Assembly (NCBI GenBank): GCA_963727505.1 | Contig: CAVSGP010000004.1 | Location: 576,001 to 640,000 of the forward strand | DNA length: 64,000 nt | Reading direction: 5' to 3' | Source of the DNA: an uncultured Trueperaceae bacterium | GTDB taxonomy: Bacteria; Deinococcota; Deinococci; Deinococcales; Trueperaceae | Part shown: positions 8,984-17,931 of the stretch, one piece after another | Position numbering within the stretch: position 1 is the stretch's first letter | Layout: the number at the start of each line of letters is the position of its first letter | The notes under the pieces: model-generated | The model's input: the letters and a program-made list of their open reading frames with translations, nothing else | Told to the model about the DNA's origin: nothing | Databases searched by the model: none | Translations under genes and position numbers: made by a program

Positions 8984-10147
8984 ATGCCTCGTCGCCGCCC
9001 GCTCTTCGTCCTTGGCTTGACGCTCGCCTCGCTGACCTTCTCGGCGGCCTGGGCTCAGAACTCGACCATCACGGTGCAACCTGGCGATTCCCTGTGGGGA
9101 CTCGCGCAACGCTACAGCACCACCGTCGACGCCCTGCGACAGGCCAACGGCCTGGTGGGCGACGCGCTGAAGCCCGGCACCAGCCTGAAGCTGCCGCAGG
9201 GCGGCAACGCAACGCCCGATGCCTACGTTGTCCAGCCGGGCGACACCCTGTACGACATCGCACTGGCGTTCCACCTGCGGGTGGACGACCTCATCGCATA
9301 CAACAACCTCAGCGGCTCCACCATCAAACCCGGGCAGACGCTCAAGCTGCAGCCGAGCACGCCCGCGCCGGCACCACTGGTCATCACGGTCCAGCCCGGC
9401 GATACGCTTTGGAACCTCGCTCAGAGCTACCAGGTCACGGTCGCGACGCTGGCCAGCGCCAACGACCTGAGTTCTGGAGGCATCCTCCACCCGGGCGACA
9501 GCCTCAAGGTTCCCGGCCGCTATGCCAGTCCCAGCACCGACACCGGCGGCCCCGTGCCGCCGACGGTGACGGTCAACAAGGGCGACAGCCTGTGGTCGAT
9601 CGCGCACCGCTACAACACCACGATCGCGGCGCTCATGAGCGCCAACGATCTGCCCTCCAGCAACCTGTTCGCCGGGCAGACGCTGCGCATCGTGCCGGCC
9701 GGCGAGCTCGGGGCCGCACGCACCAACTACGCCACCCCGACGCCCGCGCCCGCCTCGGGCATGATGTGGCCCATCCACGGGCCCATCACCTCGCACTTCG
9801 GCTACCGCCAGCTTCGCGTTGACGGCTCCAACTTCCACACCGGCCTCGACATCGCCGGCAACGCGGGGGAGGCCATCCATGCCGCGGTCGGAGGCACCGT
9901 GGTCCTGGCGGGCTGGAACGGCGGGTACGGCCTGTGCGTGATCATCAAGAGCGGCAACACCGCCTACTACTACGGCCACGCGTCCGCCCTACTCGTACAG
10001 CAGGGGCAGCAGATCCAGGAGGGTCAGGTGATCGCGCGGGTGGGCACCACCGGGCACTCGACAGGCCCGCACCTCCACTTCGAGATCCGCGTCGACAACG
10101 ATCCGGTCGATCCGCTTCCGCTCCTCCAGACCCAGGCCAGTCGCTAG
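8984..10147 (+). CDS. Secreted 4xLysM + M23 peptidoglycan endopeptidase
   Basis: Signal peptide, four VQPGD(S/T)LW-type LysM repeats, HTGLD and HLHFE M23 motifs. Confidence 0.93.
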   Translation: MPRRRPLFVLGLTLASLTFSAAWAQNSTITVQPGDSLWGLAQRYSTTVDALRQANGLVGDALKPGTSLKLPQGGNATPDAYVVQPGDTLYDIALAFHLRVDDLIAYNNLSGSTIKPGQTLKLQPSTPAPAPLVITVQPGDTLWNLAQSYQVTVATLASANDLSSGGILHPGDSLKVPGRYASPSTDTGGPVPPTVTVNKGDSLWSIAHRYNTTIAALMSANDLPSSNLFAGQTLRIVPAGELGAARTNYATPTPAPASGMMWPIHGPITSHFGYRQLRVDGSNFHTGLDIAGNAGEAIHAAVGGTVVLAGWNGGYGLCVIIKSGNTAYYYGHASALLVQQGQQIQEGQVIARVGTTGHSTGPHLHFEIRVDNDPVDPLPLLQTQASR

Positions 10148-10259: not shown

Positions 10260-11045
10260 GTGCGCGTGATCGTCGTCGGGGACATCCACATGCAGGCCGA
10301 CAAGCTCTGGCGCATCCTGCGGGAGGCGGAGCTTGCCGACGAAGGGCACCGGCCCACCACCGCCTTCGTTCAGGGCGACAGCCGACTGGTGCTGCTCGGT
10401 GACCTGGTGCACGCCAAGAGCCGCGAGCGCTACGCCGATCTCATCAACGTACGCCGGTACGACGAGTACAACCCGCGTCACCTGGAACGCGCCGAGAAGG
10501 CTCAGACGACGTTCCTCCGCGAGGTCAAGGGGTTCCAGGACCGCCTGCCAGAGGGCAAGATGGTCATCCTGATGGGCAACCACGACTTCAACGCCGTGCA
10601 CCCCGAACAGGGGCCGCTGCGCACGGACGACGTCTCGCACCTCGAGTGGAAGGTCGGCTATGGCGGCGAGATGGACCCCGAGATCCGGCAGTGGATCCTC
10701 GCCTGGCCCTCCCAGGTCGTGATCGAGGACCTGCACCTGGCGCACGTCGGCCCGCTCCCCGAGCACAACACCTACGACAACGGCTTCTACCTCGAGAATC
10801 GGCGCCGCTGGATCTACGAGGAGAAGGACTTCCTCGAGGAGACCCCCTACCGGCTCGGAATCTACGGCCACACGCCGGTACGCGGCGGCGTGAACATCGC
10901 ATCCCAGGGGCGCGCCATCCTGCTCGACACCAACGGGTACCAGGACGAATACAGCTATCTCGACGTGGACGTCGCCGAGCAGCGCTACCGACTGCGCATG
11001 CGGGGCCTGTTCTTCGACGAGACCGTCGCGCGCGCCGACGACTGA
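10260..11045 (+). CDS. Calcineurin-like metallophosphoesterase
   Basis: GDIH, GDLVH, GNHD, GHTP, LDT motifs. Confidence 0.85.
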   Translation: MRVIVVGDIHMQADKLWRILREAELADEGHRPTTAFVQGDSRLVLLGDLVHAKSRERYADLINVRRYDEYNPRHLERAEKAQTTFLREVKGFQDRLPEGKMVILMGNHDFNAVHPEQGPLRTDDVSHLEWKVGYGGEMDPEIRQWILAWPSQVVIEDLHLAHVGPLPEHNTYDNGFYLENRRRWIYEEKDFLEETPYRLGIYGHTPVRGGVNIASQGRAILLDTNGYQDEYSYLDVDVAEQRYRLRMRGLFFDETVARADD

Positions 11046-11058
11046 GCGAGCACGCCTA

Positions 11059-13098
11059 CTACTGCTCGACGCGCTGATCGTAGGTCGGCGTCATCACGAA
11101 CCACGTCTGGAACGGCGCCAGGTCGACTGGCTGGCCGCCCTCCGTCACGAAGCGCACACCGTCGGCCATGTCCCAGTGTCCGCGGACGGCGCGCCCACGC
11201 ACGTAGAGGGTCGCCGGCCCTCCCTGCAACGGGATGTAGAGCCGGCCCTCGGGGTCGTCGGGCAAGGGGCGCGCGCTGATCTTGGCCATCACCACGGCGT
11301 CTACCAGCACGTTCTCGCCGGACGCGTCGCTGGCGCCACTGCCATTGCGGACCCAACGGTATCTGTCGAGCGTCGGGAGGTACCGGAAGCCCGTCTTGTA
11401 GTCCGCGCTGAAGCGGTCGGTAACGCTGATGACCGTGGGAGCGTCGCTGGGAGGCCGGAACAACGTACCCGTCAACACGCGCGTGCGCGACGGGAGCAGC
11501 CGGTTGACGGCGCGACGTAGGGCGTCGCCCTGGCTGTAGAGGTTGTACGGCGCCTGGCGCTGGCTGGCGCGCTTGAACAGATCGCCGCGGTGGAGGGCGT
11601 CCAGCGTCGGCAAGGCACCCTGCTTGATGGCGATCATGGCGCCCGGCGACCCGCCGTCGTGCACCAGCACGGCGTTCATCGAGTCGGTGATCTTCACGAA
11701 GTAGTCGCGCGCACTGCGGATGGGCCCGACCTGGCCGGGATCTGCGGTGTCGTAGATAAGCATGAGCCGCGTCAGGCCACCCTCGACCGGCATCTCGACG
11801 ATGCTCGAGGCCTGCTTCAAACCTGCCTGCGGGTAACCGTGGACATTGTCGACCAGCACCGCCAGCGGCCGCTCGAGCTGCTGCCGGAAGGGGGCGGGCG
11901 CAGTGACGGGCGATCCCGTGCCGGTGGCGCTTCCGTCCGGTGACGTTGCACTGCCACGACCGGCCGCGTTGGCCTGGGTGGTGCCGCCCACCTGCCCGGC
12001 CGACGGCGCGTTCCCGCCCGGGGTGCGGCTGCCCGCACGGTTCGTGGCTACGTCGGCACTGCCCGGCGGAGCACCGCTGCTGCTCGGCGCACCCGTTGCC
12101 GGCGCCGGGGCCCGCACGTCGGCTCGCACCGTCGGGAGTGGTACCTGCTGCGCGGCGCTGACGGAAACCTGCGGCGTCACCTGCACGTTGCGGGCGTTGC
12201 CGGCCGTAGCGCTCGCCTGCGGCGCCGACAGGGCGCGCGGCGCCGCCACCGATGCCGACGCCTGGGGCGCGTCCAGGGATCGCGGCGCGGCGACCTGCGC
12301 CGACGCCTGCGGTGCCTGAAGCGGCTGCGCCGCGGCGACCTGCGCCTGAGCCTGGGGCGCCCGGAGACTCTGCGCCACGCTAACCGACGCCTGAGGCCGG
12401 GGAACAGCCTGGGCCGGGGCCACCTGCGCCTGCGTCTGCGGCGAGGGCACACTCTCCGCCGGCGTCACGCTGGACTGCGGCGTGATGGCCAGGCTCGTAG
12501 CCTGTGGCACCTCGGCCTGCACTTGCGGCTTGGGGATCGTGATCGAAGGGGCCGCCTGCCTGGGCTGCAGCTGCACCGGGTTGATATCGGGCAAGGTGGC
12601 CGCGGTGGTCGCCCCCGACCGCTGCGCGGGTGCCGGGGCAGCCGGCGCGGGCGGGGTCGGAGACGTCAGGCTGGGCGCCGGAGCCTCGGCCGCCTGCGCG
12701 GGCGGCGCCTGCGGTTGCGGGGCCGGCTGCCGCACTTGAGGCTGCGGCTGGACCGGGGCCGGCGGCTGCGCAGTAGCCTGCTGCGGCTCGGGCGCCTGCG
12801 GTTGGGGCTGCGGGGCGCTCCTCGCCTGTGGCTCGCCGATCGTTCCGGAGGCCACCTGCGGCTGGGACGTTTGCGGCGCGGGCGCCTCCGCCGCCGGCGC
12901 CTGCGTCGTGGTCTGGGACTGCTGTGGCGAGCCCAGGGTGACGACCAGATAGTGCTCCAACTTGCGCGGTTTGGGGGCGCTCAGGAACACCGCCAACAGC
13001 AGCAGCGCCACCAGATGGACGGTGACCGAGAGCAGGAGGGCGCGCCGCCTGTCCGGATCGCGCCACGCATCGGCGAGGCGGGTCACGCCCGTGATCAA
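11059..13098 (-). CDS. TonB/TolA-like membrane-anchored Pro/Gln/Ala-rich protein with C-terminal DUF3048 domain
   Basis: TM helix LLLSVTVHLVALLLL, long low-complexity stalk, then RPLAVLVDN..PQAGL..EGGLTRL..GPIRSARDY..GGS..APYNLY; alternative GTG start at 13086. Confidence 0.8.
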   Translation of the reverse strand: MITGVTRLADAWRDPDRRRALLLSVTVHLVALLLLAVFLSAPKPRKLEHYLVVTLGSPQQSQTTTQAPAAEAPAPQTSQPQVASGTIGEPQARSAPQPQPQAPEPQQATAQPPAPVQPQPQVRQPAPQPQAPPAQAAEAPAPSLTSPTPPAPAAPAPAQRSGATTAATLPDINPVQLQPRQAAPSITIPKPQVQAEVPQATSLAITPQSSVTPAESVPSPQTQAQVAPAQAVPRPQASVSVAQSLRAPQAQAQVAAAQPLQAPQASAQVAAPRSLDAPQASASVAAPRALSAPQASATAGNARNVQVTPQVSVSAAQQVPLPTVRADVRAPAPATGAPSSSGAPPGSADVATNRAGSRTPGGNAPSAGQVGGTTQANAAGRGSATSPDGSATGTGSPVTAPAPFRQQLERPLAVLVDNVHGYPQAGLKQASSIVEMPVEGGLTRLMLIYDTADPGQVGPIRSARDYFVKITDSMNAVLVHDGGSPGAMIAIKQGALPTLDALHRGDLFKRASQRQAPYNLYSQGDALRRAVNRLLPSRTRVLTGTLFRPPSDAPTVISVTDRFSADYKTGFRYLPTLDRYRWVRNGSGASDASGENVLVDAVVMAKISARPLPDDPEGRLYIPLQGGPATLYVRGRAVRGHWDMADGVRFVTEGGQPVDLAPFQTWFVMTPTYDQRVEQ
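12187..12450 (-). repeat. Six degenerate ~15-aa (~45-bp) coding tandem repeats
   Basis: VPSPQTQAQVAPAQA/VPRPQASVSVAQS/LRAPQAQAQVAAAQP/LQAPQASAQVAAPRS/LDAPQASASVAAPRA/LSAPQASATAGNARN. Confidence 0.85.
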
Positions 13099-13502
13099 CC
13101 CCCCGTCGCGATGGCGAGGCGTTTCGCGCCGGCCTGCTTGATCAGGTCCATGACGCGCACGACGAGACCGTGGGGGACGGTCGTGTCGGCGCGGAGCACG
13201 ACGGTGGTGTACCCGGTGGCCGCCATCCGGCCGCGCACGACATCGACCAGCTGCGCCTGCGACACGGCGCTGCCACCCACGAAGATCTGCTCGTCCTTGG
13301 TGATGGTGACCGTGGGGAGCGTCGAGGGCTCGGTGACGGCCGTCTGCGCCGACGGCAGGTCGACCGGAAGGCCCGACTCCATGGTGATGAAGGTGGTGGA
13401 CACCATGAAGAAGATCACCAGCAGGAACACCACGTCGACCATCGGGGTGAGGTCGATGCTGGGCGCTGCTCTCAGGCGGCTGCGGCCGCGCGACTCACGC
13501 AT
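13095..13502 (-). CDS. exbD: ExbD/TolR family protein
   Basis: IDLTPMVDVVFLLVIFFMV with the conserved TM Asp, VDLP, VVLRAD. Confidence 0.92.
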   Translation of the reverse strand: MRESRGRSRLRAAPSIDLTPMVDVVFLLVIFFMVSTTFITMESGLPVDLPSAQTAVTEPSTLPTVTITKDEQIFVGGSAVSQAQLVDVVRGRMAATGYTTVVLRADTTVPHGLVVRVMDLIKQAGAKRLAIATGG

Positions 13503-13511
13503 GGTGGTCCC

Positions 13512-14198
13512 CTACGCCTGCGAGGCGGCCCGCGCCGCGGAGGGCTCCCGCTCGGCGGCCTGAGGCTCCGTTCGAGACGTCTCCTCCTTGCGCGCCGCGA
13601 CGGCCTGAACCACGTTCCCCATCAGCTCCTCGCGGCGCCGGTCGATCTCCATCAGGATGGTGTCGACCCGGCTCGCCAGGTAGTTCTGGCCGATGACGGT
13701 GGGGATGGCGACGATCAGGCCGGCTGCCGTGGTGACCAGTGCCTGCCCGATGCCGTCGGCCAGCACCGACGGGTTGCCGGTGCCCTGGTTGGCGATCTCT
13801 GAAAAGGCGAGGATCATGCCGGTCACGGTACCGAGCAGGCCCAGCATGGGGGCGATCTGTGCGATGGCCGCCAGCGGCCGCAGACCGCGGGTTAGGTTCT
13901 GCTCCTCCTGGAGGGAGGCCTCCTGGAAGGCCGCCTCGACAGCGGAGCGACCGTACGGCAGCCGCAGCAGCGCCGCGCGTAGCACCCGGGCGACCGGGCC
14001 GCCGTGCTGCTCGCACGCGGCCAGCGCCAGCTCCAGATCGCGCTCGCGTACCGCAGCGTTGACACGCCCCATCAGCACATCGCTATCGAGGCGCTCCTTG
14101 GAGAGCTTGAAGAAGCGTTCGAAGAACAGGTAGACGGCGTACAGCGAAACGAGCAGAATTGCGACCAGAACGGGGCCGCCGCTCATCAGAAGACTCAT
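13512..14198 (-). CDS. exbB: MotA/TolQ/ExbB proton channel family protein
   Basis: APMLGLLGTVTGMI, GIGQALVTTAAGLIVAIP. Confidence 0.92.
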   Translation of the reverse strand: MSLLMSGGPVLVAILLVSLYAVYLFFERFFKLSKERLDSDVLMGRVNAAVRERDLELALAACEQHGGPVARVLRAALLRLPYGRSAVEAAFQEASLQEEQNLTRGLRPLAAIAQIAPMLGLLGTVTGMILAFSEIANQGTGNPSVLADGIGQALVTTAAGLIVAIPTVIGQNYLASRVDTILMEIDRRREELMGNVVQAVAARKEETSRTEPQAAEREPSAARAASQA

Positions 14199-14314
14199 GC
14201 GCGACTCCTCATCGTAGGACCGTCAGCATAGGTGGCTTCGCAATGAACGCCATGAGACGGTTATACCAGAGGCTTCATGCGACTTCATCCAACATTGGGT
14301 CCGGGAACGGCCCC

Positions 14315-17056
14315 TCAACCGGTGTTGCGCATCCCCGCTGCCACGCCGAGGAGCGACACCAGTACCGCGTACTCCAAACCCTCGCGCTCCGGGCTCTCCT
14401 CGGGCAGCGCGCGCAGCCTGCCCAGCAGCTCGACCTGGAGGAAGCTGATGGGGTCGACGTAGGGGTTGCGGAGCTCGATGGAACGCGCCAGCGTGGGATC
14501 GTTCTCGAGAAGACCATGACCGGTGGCGCGCTCGACCTGCTCGACCGTCCGGACGTGCTCCTCGTGGATGATGGCGCGGAAACGCTCCCGCAAGCCCTGG
14601 GGCACCAGCTCCAGATAGCGCTCGAAGATGTCGAGATCGGCCTTCGCTAGGCTCATCTGCGCGAAGTCGATGAGGGTGCCGAAGAACGGCCATTCGCGCA
14701 CCATCTCCGCGGTGAGCTCCGGCGGCAACACCGCCAGCCCCGAGCCGAGCCCGAACCAGCCCGGGAGGTTGGCCCGGCACTGTGTCCAGGAGAACACCCA
14801 CGGGATCGCGCGGAGGTTGTCGAGCGAGCGGTCTCCGGCACGGCGGGCAGGCCGCGAGCCGATATCGAGGCGGCTGATCTCCTCGATGGGGGTCACGGTG
14901 TGGAAGAAGTCCAGGAAGCCGTCGCTCTCGAGGAGGGTGCGATAGCGCTCCCTCGCGGCGCGCGAGGCGCGCTCCATGGCCTCGCGGTAGCGCTCGGGGA
15001 GCTCGGGGAGCGGGCCGGCATCGCGTGCCGAGGAGAGGATGAAGGCGTGCGCGACCTGCTCCAGGTGACGGTGAGCGAGGTCGGAATCGGCGTAGCGCGC
15101 CGCCAGTGCTTCCCCCTGCTCGGTGATGCGCATCCGGCCCCCGAGGCTTCCCGGCGGCTGTGCCAGGATGGCCCGCCCGGCGGGGCCACCTCCCCGACCG
15201 ATGCTGGTGCCGCGGCCGTGGAAGATCCGCAGCGGCACGCCGGCCTCGCGGCAGATCTTCGCCACGCCGTCCTGCGCCTGGTAGAGCGCCCAGTTGGCGG
15301 CCAGGAAGCCGGCGTCCTTGTTCGAGTCCGAGTACCCGATCATGACCTCCTGCACCCCGCGGCCCTCCACGTGGCGGCGGTAGGCGGGGACCGCGAACAG
15401 GCGCTCGATGACGCCGGGCGCGGCCCGCAGGTCGGCCTCCGTCTCGAACAGCGGGGTGGCGTCGATGGCCGATACGCCCGCCTGCTTGGCCAGCACCAGC
15501 GCCTCCAGGATGTCGGACACCCCTTCGGTCATGCTCACCACGTAGCTCCCGGTCGCCTCCTCGCCGAAGCGCGCCTGCGTGCGGCGGACCTCCTCGAGGA
15601 AGGCCAGCGCGCGCTCGGCCTCCGGTCCCAGCGCCGCTTCGGGCGGAGCCAGAGGACGCGGCGAGCCCAGCTCGCGTTCGAGCAGCGCGACGCGGACGTC
15701 CTCGTCGAGCGAGGCGTAGTCGTCCACGACCCCGGCGTGGCTTAAGAGCTGCGCCACCGCCCTCTCGTGCACCTGCGAGTGCTCGCGCAGGTCGAGCGGA
15801 GCGAGGTGGAAGCGGAACGCGCTGGCACGGTGCAGCGCGGGTCGCACGAACGACCGGGCCGCGCGCTCGCCCTGACCGGCCTCGAGCGTGCTCTCCACCA
15901 ACGCCAGGTCGTCGACGAGCGCCTGCGCGCCACCTGGGTATCCGACCGGCCCTTCGCGGCGCAGCGCCGCGCGTTCGCGCTCGAGGAAACGATGCACGTA
16001 CGCCAGTTTCTGCCGGTAGGGCTCCTCGTGGAAGCGCACGGGCGGACCCTCCGTCTGCAACAGGCGCTGCAGGTCGTCGCGGAAGGGCTTGGTCAGGGTC
16101 ACCCTCCGCTCCCACAGCGACAATCGCTGCACCAGGGCGTCCACATCCGCGAGATAGGCGTCGAGCGCGACCTCCGCCTGCAGGGTGATCGCCTCGCGGG
16201 TGACGTCGGGCGTGACGAAAGGGTTGCCGTCACGGTCGCCGCCGATCCACGAGCGGAATCCCAGCACGGTCGGCAGGGGCGGGTTCTCCGCGACGCCGTA
16301 GACGGCGTCGAGCGCCTCCTCCATGTCCTGCATGAGGCGCGGGATGGCGTCGAGCAGCGAGCGACGGAAGTAGTAGAGGGCGCTCTTCACCTCGTCGAGC
16401 ACGGTCGGCTTGACCGCGAACAGCTCGCGCGTCTGCCACAGGGTGGCGATCTCGGCGAAGACTTCGTCGTTCAAGCGGACCTCTTGCTGCGGCGACAGCT
16501 CGTGCTCGCTCGAACGTCGCAGGGCCGCCGCGATACGCTCGAGCTTGAGTCGAACGGTGTAGCGCTTGACCTCGGTGGGATGCGCGGTCAGGGTGAGCCC
16601 GACGTCGATCTTCTCCATGAAGGAGCGCACCTGGCCGCGCGTCCATCCCTGGTCGCTCAGGCTCCTCACCGCCGCTGCCACCGACTCGGGACGCGGCGAT
16701 TCCGGGGTGGCGTGCGCGTCGCGCAGGCGGTTCACGCGCACGCGATGGATCTCCTCGGCAAGGTTGATGAGCTGGAAGTAGACGGTGAAGGCCCGAAGCA
16801 GTCGCTCGGCCGTTGCCAGATCGAGCTCTGCGATACGCTCCTCGAGCGCATCCGCGGCACCGGCCTGGCCCGCGCGGCGCTGCTTGGTGCCGGCGCGCAC
16901 GCTCTCCACCAGGTCGAACAGTCGCTCCCCCTCGAGCTCGCGCAGGACCGTGCCCAGTGCGCTTCCCAGGAACCCTACGTCTGCCCTGAGTTGTTCGAAG
17001 GCGTCCTGTGGGCTGTCGTGCAGCTTCTCACGGTCGTTCTCTGCCTCGGGGTCCAC
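14315..17056 (-). CDS. ppc: Phosphoenolpyruvate carboxylase
   Basis: LTAHPTE, SWIGGDRDGNP, MIGYSDSNKD, FHGRG, LRAIPWVF, GMRNTG end; TAGAAT 7 nt before GTG 17056. Confidence 0.97.
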   Translation of the reverse strand: MDPEAENDREKLHDSPQDAFEQLRADVGFLGSALGTVLRELEGERLFDLVESVRAGTKQRRAGQAGAADALEERIAELDLATAERLLRAFTVYFQLINLAEEIHRVRVNRLRDAHATPESPRPESVAAAVRSLSDQGWTRGQVRSFMEKIDVGLTLTAHPTEVKRYTVRLKLERIAAALRRSSEHELSPQQEVRLNDEVFAEIATLWQTRELFAVKPTVLDEVKSALYYFRRSLLDAIPRLMQDMEEALDAVYGVAENPPLPTVLGFRSWIGGDRDGNPFVTPDVTREAITLQAEVALDAYLADVDALVQRLSLWERRVTLTKPFRDDLQRLLQTEGPPVRFHEEPYRQKLAYVHRFLERERAALRREGPVGYPGGAQALVDDLALVESTLEAGQGERAARSFVRPALHRASAFRFHLAPLDLREHSQVHERAVAQLLSHAGVVDDYASLDEDVRVALLERELGSPRPLAPPEAALGPEAERALAFLEEVRRTQARFGEEATGSYVVSMTEGVSDILEALVLAKQAGVSAIDATPLFETEADLRAAPGVIERLFAVPAYRRHVEGRGVQEVMIGYSDSNKDAGFLAANWALYQAQDGVAKICREAGVPLRIFHGRGTSIGRGGGPAGRAILAQPPGSLGGRMRITEQGEALAARYADSDLAHRHLEQVAHAFILSSARDAGPLPELPERYREAMERASRAARERYRTLLESDGFLDFFHTVTPIEEISRLDIGSRPARRAGDRSLDNLRAIPWVFSWTQCRANLPGWFGLGSGLAVLPPELTAEMVREWPFFGTLIDFAQMSLAKADLDIFERYLELVPQGLRERFRAIIHEEHVRTVEQVERATGHGLLENDPTLARSIELRNPYVDPISFLQVELLGRLRALPEESPEREGLEYAVLVSLLGVAAGMRNTG

Positions 17057-17148
17057 GCGGCCGATTCTATCGCGGCGGGCCGCGCGACCCGGATCACGGG
17101 CCGGCCGAAACGCCGATCGGCCCGCGCCTCCCCGCGCCCACCACAGCG

Positions 17149-17931
17149 TTAGTCCTCTCGATCCCCGTCCGGCGCCGGCCACTGCAGCCGCCGGATCGAG
17201 CGTGCGCGCCGCCCCTCCAACTCGAGCACCACACCGCAGAGGGTTCCGCGGCCCTGGGCGGGCCGGTAGCGGCGCGGCAGCTTGTGCACGAAGCGGGCGT
17301 GCACCTCTTCGAAGCCCATGCCGATGGACGACGCCTGCACACCGCTCATGCCCGCATCGGTGATGTAGGCAGTGCCGCGTACGATGGTCTCGTCGGCAGT
17401 CTGGACGTGCGTGTGCGTGCCGATGACGGCGCTCGCCCGGCCCGCCAGGTGGTAGAGCATCGCCTTCTTCTCGCTGGTGGCCTCGGCGTGGAAGTCGACC
17501 AGCAGCGCCTGACCCTCCGGAACGTCCTCGACGACGCCGTCGACGGCCCGGAAGGGGTCGTCGAGTGCATCCATGAAGACGCGCCCCATCGCCTGCGCCA
17601 CGGTGATGCGCTCGCCGTTACGGGCCTGGAAGGCCGCAGCGCCCACCCCTGGGGTTCCGGGAGGGTAATTGGCGGCCCGGATCAACCGCGGGGTCTCCTC
17701 GGCCAGCTCGACGGCTTCCCCCTGGTCCCAGCCGTGGTTGCCGAGGGTGACGACGTCGACTCCGGCCTCGCGGAGTTGCTGGAAGTGCCGCCGCGTGATG
17801 CCGAACCCGCCGGCCGCGTTCTCACCGTTGGCGATGATGAAGTCGTAATCGTCGCGGGCCTGTTCGAGGTAGGCCTGCACGACCTTCATGCCTGGCGTGC
17901 TGAAGATGTCGCCGATGAACAGGACGCGCAC
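17149..17931 (-). CDS. ymdB: YmdB/TIGR00282 family metallophosphoesterase
   Basis: FIGDI, NGENAAGG, TLGNH, DFHAEATSEK, GTHTHVQTAD. Confidence 0.9.
   Translation of the reverse strand: MRVLFIGDIFSTPGMKVVQAYLEQARDDYDFIIANGENAAGGFGITRRHFQQLREAGVDVVTLGNHGWDQGEAVELAEETPRLIRAANYPPGTPGVGAAAFQARNGERITVAQAMGRVFMDALDDPFRAVDGVVEDVPEGQALLVDFHAEATSEKKAMLYHLAGRASAVIGTHTHVQTADETIVRGTAYITDAGMSGVQASSIGMGFEEVHARFVHKLPRRYRPAQGRGTLCGVVLELEGRRARSIRRLQWPAPDGDRED

Follow-up and report, generated by a model that had tools for sequence, protein, structure and literature searches.

A candidate envelope force transducer in Trueperaceae: a TonB/TolA-like protein tipped with DUF3048 and encoded beside ExbB/ExbD-type motor genes

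Known transducers and the Trueperaceae cassette

The closest described relatives of the system reported here are the TonB and TolA transducers with their ExbB/ExbD and TolQ/TolR motors. Cryo-electron microscopy, in the parts of PMC12215075 that treat these contacts, places Ser16 and His20 of TonB against Ser34 and Trp38 of ExbB, and Ser18 and His22 of TolA against Ser28 and Trp32 of TolQ, contacts that connect to Pro190 and Pro187. Passages of Williams-Jones et al. 2025, Mol Biol Evol (PMC12204202) define a beta-strand "motor box" after the helix of TolA and TonB and describe TolA/TonB-like transducers that carry a vWA head and are encoded beside tolQR-like genes. Atypical diderms, Deinococcota included, keep TolQ/TolR-like motors without TolB and Pal, and the passages of PMC8871954 and PMC12204202 that deal with them recognise no TolA or TonB; for the diderms lacking pal and tolB, PMC8871954 gives tolA as at most doubtful in these passages. 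YerB, the type DUF3048 protein, is called a putative lipoprotein in passages of PMC13068155 and PMC3416734; as late as 2026 the first of the two counts YerB/DUF3048 as unassignable. Here we describe a three-gene cassette in a 64,000-nucleotide (nt) stretch of contig CAVSGP010000004.1 from an uncultured Trueperaceae bacterium (the window, in whose coordinates positions are given), in which exbB- and exbD-type genes are followed by a gene for a TonB/TolA-like protein tipped with DUF3048. We propose that this protein is, in all likelihood, a motor-coupled force transducer of the TonB/TolA type.

The three genes lie on the minus strand in the order exbB, exbD, transducer, as given by the list of open reading frames and by Pfam. 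The features of the cassette are the following.

13512-14198, minus strand: exbB/tolQ-type motor subunit, 228 amino acids (aa); MotA_ExbB (PF01618), E-value 4.6e-31
13095-13502, minus strand: exbD/tolR-type motor subunit, 135 aa; PF02472, E-value 9.2e-32
11059-13098, minus strand: transducer gene, encoding anchor, stalk and DUF3048 head, 679 aa from TTG 13098
12976-13041, minus strand: single N-terminal transmembrane helix, residues 20-41, with an R-R-R patch just before it
13015-13029, minus strand: S24-x3-H28 motif (SVTVH) within the transmembrane helix
12925-12951, minus strand: hydrophobic, strand-like segment YLVVTLGSP after the helix, residues 50-58, candidate "motor box"
11899-12924, minus strand: low-complexity stalk, residues 59-400 (342 residues)
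12214-12376, minus strand: tandem 45-nt (15-aa) stalk repeats (Tandem Repeats Finder)
11503-11880, minus strand: DUF3048 N-terminal domain, residues 407-532; PF11258, E-value 6.7e-34, 117.6 bits against a cut-off of 25
11101-11415, minus strand: DUF3048_C domain, residues 562-666; PF17479, E-value 2.2e-8, 34.9 bits against a cut-off of 25

The original prediction, made from the letters of the window, had described an exbB-exbD pair with a 9-nt gap, a third gene abutting the exbD stop, an N-terminal helix with SVTVH, a Pro/Gln/Ala stalk of about 350 residues and a C-terminal DUF3048/YerB-like domain, and all of these elements are present where they had been placed. The motor genes are 9 nt apart, S24 and H28 are encoded at 13029-13015, and the TTG start of the transducer gene (13098-13096) overlaps the TGA stop of exbD (13097-13095); a GTG at 13086 fits several relatives and is as possible a start. 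A promoter and terminator scan of 10800-14500 returned no sites, and the 15 sequencing runs listed for this stretch are all recorded as DNA, none as RNA.

The window's ExbB scores 86.9 bits with the NCBIfam tolQ model (cut-off 221) and 69.9 bits with exbB (206.2), and its ExbD scores 74.3 bits with tolR (127.3) and 62.7 bits with ExbD_1 (152.95). By these scores, which fall below the cut-offs of all four equivalogs, the motor is a member of the superfamily outside both named systems, TolQ/TolR and ExbB/ExbD. The NCBIfam scan gave no match for the transducer protein. ExbB Thr124 and Thr157 align with Thr148 and Thr181 of E. coli ExbB, and ExbD Asp23 aligns with Asp25 of E. coli ExbD and Asp23 of TolR; given that these proton-path residues, the pore Thr pair and the Asp, are kept in 45/45 rows, the motor looks functional. 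On the side facing the transducer, ExbB Ser18 in the first transmembrane helix (TM1) aligns with ExbB Ser34 and TolQ Ser28 of E. coli, and ExbB Pro166 (13701-13703) in TM3 aligns with ExbB Pro190 and TolQ Pro187.

The anchor of the transducer is equally recognisable. In alignment A1, D14, D16, R18, R19, A20 and H28 are invariant and S24 is present in 16/17 sequences. A profile of 34 anchors aligns with residues 8-32 of E. coli TolA (hhalign Prob 72.9%, E-value 3.1e-5, 25 columns) in a register that matches the basic pair and sets Ser24 and His28 on TolA Ser18 and His22. Together with the retention of the contact residue ExbB Ser18, this register supports, at the level of aligned residues, the earlier reading of the protein as a Ton/Tol-like transducer. 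Just beyond the helix, V52, G56 and P58 are invariant in A1 and nearly invariant in A5, and residues 50-58 stand at the place of the TolA/TonB "motor box", for which they are a candidate.

In the stalk (residues 59-400) Ala makes up 23%, Pro 18% and Gln 15%, and aromatic residues are absent. Its repeats form two overlapping arrays of period 45 with 2.1-2.3 copies each, and the peptide copies stand at residues 243, 258 and 273. Stalk length is variable in relatives. In some assemblies of one genus the stalk shows frame breaks (L005) or three in-frame TGA codons (L010, G005); these are probably assembly errors in a repetitive, GC-rich region rather than marks of pseudogenes. Such breaks, and the fact that GC-rich DNA holds many long spurious open reading frames, could be taken to mean that a free DUF3048 gene was joined in silico to a spurious upstream frame. 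We regard this annotation artefact as highly improbable, for the frame is open over its full length of 592-1029 aa in almost all genomes, the N-terminal 60 residues are conserved at the protein level across genera at 40-50% overall identity, and the same architecture is found in AT-rich Atribacterota-like contigs (see below), where spurious frames are rare.

The head belongs to DUF3048 by sequence and by fold. As had been expected, a Pfam scan of the transducer at E <= 0.01 found DUF3048 and DUF3048_C, both above their cut-offs, and no TonB_C, TolA domain III or other family. The match of the head to B. subtilis YerB (PDB 2psb; phmmer E-value 2.1e-28) covers both domains. A structural model of the head (pLDDT, the predicted local distance difference test, 93.5) has 2psb as its sole Foldseek hit at E <= 0.001 (TM-score 0.83), and VIA-align against 48,161 chains gives 2psb at Z 32.9, with a root-mean-square deviation (rmsd) of 2.2 Å over 266 residues and 27% identity. 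A large number of positions do not vary among 50 heads, and YerB has the conserved blocks as well, which points to a conserved site in the DUF3048 head. The relatives of the head are numerous. HMMER returned 5416 representative clusters at E <= 1e-3; the top-scoring proteins are long and carry the domain C-terminally, and most others have a short leader and a length of 320-420 aa. In the ESM Atlas every cluster returned was DUF3048, the nearest being labelled Bacillota, Actinomycetota and Chloroflexota; a homologue search returned only proteins of the same type, named "DUF3048 domain-containing protein" or "hypothetical"; and lipoprotein-type members with Pro/Thr-rich linkers are present in metagenome loci. 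YerB itself shares with the window's head the two-domain fold and the conserved sequence blocks, whereas YerB-like forms are about 320-400 aa with a short leader and no motor linkage in contigs L170-L176, and the protein described here has a signal-anchor helix and a stalk of about 340 residues in an exbBD operon.

The vWA transducers are the nearest published parallel. As described in parts of PMC12204202, they have in common with the DUF3048 protein the Ser/His helix, a linker, a foreign globular head and adjoining TolQ/ExbB-TolR/ExbD motor genes, and a giant TPR gene lies upstream both in the vWA loci and in the Atribacterota-like DUF3048 loci. They differ in the head, in the length of the stalk (about 100 residues as against about 340 here) and in their hosts, which in those parts of the paper are Proteobacteria, Planctomycetes, Verrucomicrobia, Bacteroidetes and Rhodothermaeota, as against Deinococcota and Atribacterota-like bacteria. 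The strings "Deinococc", "Thermus", "Truepera" and "DUF3048" are absent from the main text and one supplement of PMC12204202, whose other supplements could bear on this, and among the papers listed by literature searches on DUF3048, on Deinococcus ExbB/ExbD/TonB (judged by title) and on the YerB lipoprotein (where YerB is mentioned in passing) we found no DUF3048-headed transducer. The original claim of a new machine is therefore upheld for the head, which we did not find in print, but not for the principle, given that transducers with a foreign head have already been published for vWA; the DUF3048 head fits as an addition to that published class.

One motor and one candidate partner in the genome

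We next asked what the rest of the source genome (3.26 Mb, 97.4% complete) offers to the motor. The genome holds exactly one MotA_ExbB match, one DUF3048 match and, with the 34-anchor profile at E <= 10, one anchor of the TonB/TolA type. TonB_C (PF03544) is absent genome-wide, while the same search is positive in E. coli, Caulobacter and Bacteroides; control genomes gave the expected matches in each family search. Because motor, anchor and DUF3048 are each single and TonB_C is missing, we read the genome as having one motor with one partner. The window had been said to lack a TonB-dependent receptor, tolB and pal, and this extends to the whole of the 97.4%-complete genome, in which neither Plug (PF07715) nor TonB_dep_Rec_b-barrel (PF00593), and neither TolB_N (PF04052) nor the OmpA/Pal family (PF00691), has a match. 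The sole SLH domain lies at G000:C2:183620-183751 (minus strand; G000 is the window's genome) within a 1088-aa open frame. A single SLH protein fits an outer envelope of the Deinococcota type, and the protein is presumably an outer-membrane tether of the SlpA/OmpM type and, as such, a candidate partner.

These searches bear on the nature of the target. In a Ton-like importer, the DUF3048 head would grip an unrecognised outer-membrane channel, for example an SLH-anchored barrel protein, and open it for uptake. The anchor, the Pro-rich stalk and the exbBD linkage are TonB-like, the long stalk would reach the outer membrane, and the genome does encode one SLH protein. Nevertheless, we consider import a quite unlikely role. 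Neither a Plug nor the barrel of a TonB-dependent receptor is present in the genome, nothing ties the head to a barrel protein, and DUF3048 is common in a short-leader or lipoprotein form in Bacillota, Actinomycetota and Chloroflexota, lineages that for the most part lack an outer membrane, and this favours a ligand independent of that membrane.

The same comparison sets the cassette apart from both classical systems. With E. coli TonB the transducer shares the Ser-x3-His anchor and the Pro-rich periplasmic spacer, and its motor shares the Ser of TM1 and the Pro of TM3; it differs in having no TonB_C, in a genome without TonB-dependent receptors, in a motor whose TM1 Trp is not conserved and in the strict linkage of its gene to its own motor. 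With TolA it has in common the order motor-motor-transducer, an anchor in register with TolA residues 8-32 and one transducer per motor, but TolA domain III is absent from the Pfam scan and the genome has no gene for TolB_N or OmpA/Pal. Because neither the heads nor the clients that define the two systems were found, the machine is Ton/Tol-like in its working and a member of neither. From the linkage of the genes we infer that the transducer depends on an ExbB/ExbD-type motor.

Conservation of the cassette and exchange of its head

The cassette is conserved in the window's family and in one other. We surveyed an even sample of 300 Deinococcota genomes, in which f1 denotes the window's family and f2-f5 other families; the 80 further loci mentioned below are partly shared with the genome sample. 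DUF3048 is found in 100/102 f1 and 14/14 f3 genomes and in 0/112 f2, 0/62 f4 and 0/10 f5 genomes. ExbD is distributed differently: 97/102 in f1, 13/14 in f3, 109/112 in f2, 11/62 in f4 and 2/10 in f5. With the window's genome included, 115 genomes have DUF3048, and 101 of these have ExbD among the matches listed. Among these matches, 96/101 genomes have ExbD 958-1800 nt upstream of DUF3048 on a shared contig and strand; in the other five the two fall on separate contigs, and one or both of them lie no more than a few hundred bases from a contig start (G257 is one of the five; without it the count is 96/100). Orthologues of the transducer occur in 24/24 genomes of the same family and 4/4 of f3, and in the 19 relatives' loci exbD is directly upstream in all 19 and exbB as well in 18, the nineteenth locus ending inside exbD. 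The predicted synteny of exbB, exbD and DUF3048 is thus a general feature of these genomes. In the 80 further loci, of which 75 include the N-terminus and 5 are cut by a contig end, the anchor His is present in 75/75 and the residue four before it is Ser in 74 and Thr in one. Every relative whose sequence is intact repeats both the order of the three genes and the anchor motif, so the cassette is not a product of chance.

Conservation of the motor matches that of the anchor. The TM1 Ser is kept in 38/38 sampled motors whose partner has S/T/A-x3-H or S-x3-N (f1 18/18, f2 6/6, f4 3/3, f5 1/1, Atribacterota-like 10/10), and in 92/92 non-f3 rows of a larger set. The TM3 Pro follows the head: among the sampled motors it is kept in those linked to DUF3048 (f1 18/18, f3 5/5, Atribacterota-like 10/10), and in 10/10 motors linked to the second type of head that we describe next its place is taken by Leu, Val, Met or Thr.

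In f2, f4 and f5 the gene after exbD also encodes a basic patch, a His-bearing helix and a Pro-rich stalk. The anchor His is present in 10/10 of these proteins, with Thr (5), Ser (2) or Ala (3) four residues before it. They end in a domain of about 115 aa with two invariant Cys and no Pfam match, as in the following examples.

L105:3866-5647, minus strand: two-Cys-head transducer
loci L112-L119 and L122-L151: further two-Cys-head transducers

This sister cassette thus has the order exbB-exbD, the His anchor and the Pro-rich stalk in common with the window's cassette, and the motors of both form one clade when rooted on E. coli (99/97); it differs in the two-Cys head and in its motors, which lack the TM3 Pro (0/10). 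The two-Cys domain is found in 52/53 f2, 8/19 f5, 8/52 f4 and 0/23 f3 genomes, and in 1/53 f1 genomes as a weak match elsewhere in the genome (E-value 5.9e-4), a distribution that is the complement of that of DUF3048. The control genomes of D. radiodurans and T. thermophilus have ExbB/ExbD and lack DUF3048. A model of the two-Cys head (pLDDT 80.2) has a single structural match, the Treponema pallidum Tp0624 middle domain (5jir), with Z 10.5 and rmsd 3.5 Å over 105 residues by VIA-align, the next best match having Z 2.4, and with a Foldseek probability of 0.98 at an E-value of 0.05. We also considered that this head might be a diverged TonB_C or TolA-III, and rejected the idea on the grounds that the Tp0624 middle domain is its sole fold match. 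That domain is uncharacterised, and the two-Cys domain is a second orphan head on the same chassis. Because anchor and stalk persist through the head swap, we regard them as a stable chassis on which the head is exchangeable.

Outside the Deinococcota, long and distant DUF3048 proteins led to the same arrangement. P0236 has an S-x3-N helix, and members of its cluster are named Thermatribacter velox, Atrimonas thermophila and Candidatus Atribacteria; P0166 and P0196 have S-x3-H. In a metagenome scan seeded with such proteins, which gave 27 loci, exbD is directly upstream on the same strand in 16, and exbB is also present in 11 of these 16, the rest running out of flank; exbBD was not seen in the other 11 of the 27, which have different architectures or are too short. 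The anchors of the 16 loci have S-x3-N followed by a strand-like segment. Asn can functionally replace His20 of TonB. Pfam confirms all three proteins in two of the Atribacterota-like loci, the exbD stop overlaps the next start in one, and the contigs are AT-rich. Directly upstream of exbB, on the same strand, both loci examined encode a giant TPR protein of 879-958 aa that has TPR_6 and YfiO-like repeats (L153:4-2877, L160:6-2642), and lgt follows the transducer gene in L153; no giant TPR gene flanks the Trueperaceae cassette.

For the trees, f1 was subsampled to every fifth row (18/82). A tree of ExbB plus ExbD with 33 rows splits f1 and f3 from f2, f4 and f5 (Shimodaira-Hasegawa-like approximate likelihood ratio test, SH-aLRT, 99), and in an unrooted tree with 10 Atribacterota-like rows added these group with f1 and f3 against f2, f4 and f5 (99). 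Rooting on E. coli TolQR/ExbBD unites all the Deinococcota motors in a single clade (99/97) with the Atribacterota-like motors as sister, and within this clade lie the two-Cys-head clade (100/99) and f1 plus f3 (87/73); the rooted tree has two outgroup rows only, and long branches and deviant composition are flagged in it. Transfer of the cassette from Atribacterota to Trueperaceae and f3 would be allowed by the unrooted tree and is countered by the 99/97 Deinococcota clade, with the same flags for long branches and composition bias. The rooted motor tree would allow DUF3048 to be the older head and the two-Cys head a single later replacement. In a tree of 141 DUF3048 domains the Deinococcota-type heads fall on one side of a branch (99) and the Atribacterota-like heads among short-leader and lipoprotein forms, with weak support; on this tree one or several recruitments of DUF3048 are both possible. 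P0167, P0184, P0198, P0207, P0233 and P0249 belong to a separate family of 810-941 aa, its own clade in the head tree (98), in which an N-terminal helical region with a conserved start is followed by DUF3048 in the middle and by a long Ala/Pro-rich tail ending in a conserved acidic-aromatic motif. DUF3048 is also combined with several different extracytoplasmic modules: P0156 (1022 aa) has two copies behind cohesin/dockerin-like regions, and P0161 (914 aa) has the domain behind RCC1-like repeats.

The genes around the cassette are conserved over a shorter range. In the window, ppc (14315-17182, minus strand) lies upstream, and the genes for a peptidase with four LysM domains and an M23 domain (8984-10147, plus strand) and for a calcineurin-like phosphoesterase (10260-11045, plus strand) converge on the cassette. 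Within Trueperaceae these neighbours are syntenic (ppc in 54/80 loci, the metallophosphoesterase in 48/80, the LysM-M23 peptidase in 46/80), and in the loci of f2, f3 and the Atribacterota-like group that we examined none of the three adjoins the cassette. We rejected them as parts of the cassette and take them to be inherited synteny limited to the family. Given that the flanking genes differ in other families, the conserved unit is the three genes.

A proposed machine and its place in the Deinococcota envelope

What we observe is the set of domains, the conservation of gene order and of contact residues, and the modular exchange of the head; on this we base the following model, in which motor binding, the transmission of force and the nature of the target are inferred. 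Together the three genes would specify a single trans-envelope machine of the Ton/Tol type, driven by protons. In it, ExbB and ExbD would form the usual 5:2 motor in the inner membrane, the N-terminal helix of the transducer would dock on the exterior of ExbB through its Ser-x3-His face, and the short strand after the helix would engage ExbD. The Ala/Pro/Gln stalk of about 340 residues may then span the thick periplasm and wall of Deinococcota, so that the C-terminal, YerB-type DUF3048 domain could grip its target. The role would lie nearer to that of Tol (upkeep or remodelling of the envelope) than to that of Ton (import). Because TonB-dependent receptors, TolB and Pal are absent and DUF3048 is elsewhere membrane-tethered in monoderm-type bacteria, the target is more likely to be the cell wall or a wall-associated component than an outer-membrane plug protein.

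Several observations weigh against this model or narrow it. The expected conservation of SxxxH across Deinococcota holds for the Trueperaceae type, with [S/T]-x3-H in 75/75 loci, but not for f3, which has DUF3048 and the same gene order and in which the anchor His is present in 0/5 and the Ser is mostly gone; further f3-like proteins are likewise without the His and mostly without the Ser. Either S-x3-H is not indispensable, or coupling in f3 works differently. The f3 motors have Thr at the ExbB Ser18 position in 5/5, and Leu or Phe in place of ExbD Met21, which is invariant in 105/105 other rows; the co-variation of Ser to Thr amounts to one evolutionary event, and we treat it as a lead, not as evidence. 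The Trp beside the TM1 Ser in E. coli ExbB and TolQ is not conserved, the position being held by Val, Leu, Ala or Ile, with Val in the window's ExbB. The "motor box" assignment is drawn from a sequence pattern, and the proposed wall target from the taxonomic spread of DUF3048 and the missing Ton/Tol partners. The fold of the head gives no hint of a ligand, the next best VIA-align match after YerB having Z 3.5. Finally, P0166 (locus L169) has an S-x3-H anchor and no exbBD upstream, where a divergent gene stands instead.

The last of these findings, the f3 anchors without His and the fact that DUF3048 proteins elsewhere work without a motor would all suit a passive tether, that is, a membrane-anchored wall enzyme or binder that is merely co-transcribed with exbBD, the motor serving an unlinked partner or itself. 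This is unlikely in view of the conservation described above. Across two phyla the three genes stay in the same order although every other neighbour differs, the start and stop codons overlap, the genome has neither a second TonB-like anchor nor a TonB_C to offer the motor, anchor and stalk survive the exchange of the head, and contact residues are conserved on both sides. A motor-coupled transducer tipped with DUF3048 therefore remains our preferred reading.

A more far-reaching proposal concerns its history. In the diderm Terrabacteria, here Deinococcota and Atribacterota, this ExbB/ExbD lineage might have the DUF3048-tipped transducer as its ancestral partner, one that acts on peptidoglycan in a Tol-like, proton-driven manner. 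The YerB lipoproteins that Bacillota, Actinomycetota and Chloroflexota have without a motor might then be remnants left after loss of the outer membrane and of the link to the motor. We hold this to be speculative and rather doubtful; if true, an ancient system that energises the wall or the outer envelope would have DUF3048 as its working end.

For the Deinococcota, the proposed transducer would give an orphan motor a named partner, with a TonB/TolA-type stalk and a different working end, and this working end has been exchanged at least once within the phylum. The finding raises the question of what job a Ton/Tol-like machine performs in an envelope without TonB-dependent receptors or Tol-Pal. 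For the DUF3048/YerB family, a place at the tip of a proton-driven force transducer would be its first functional context.

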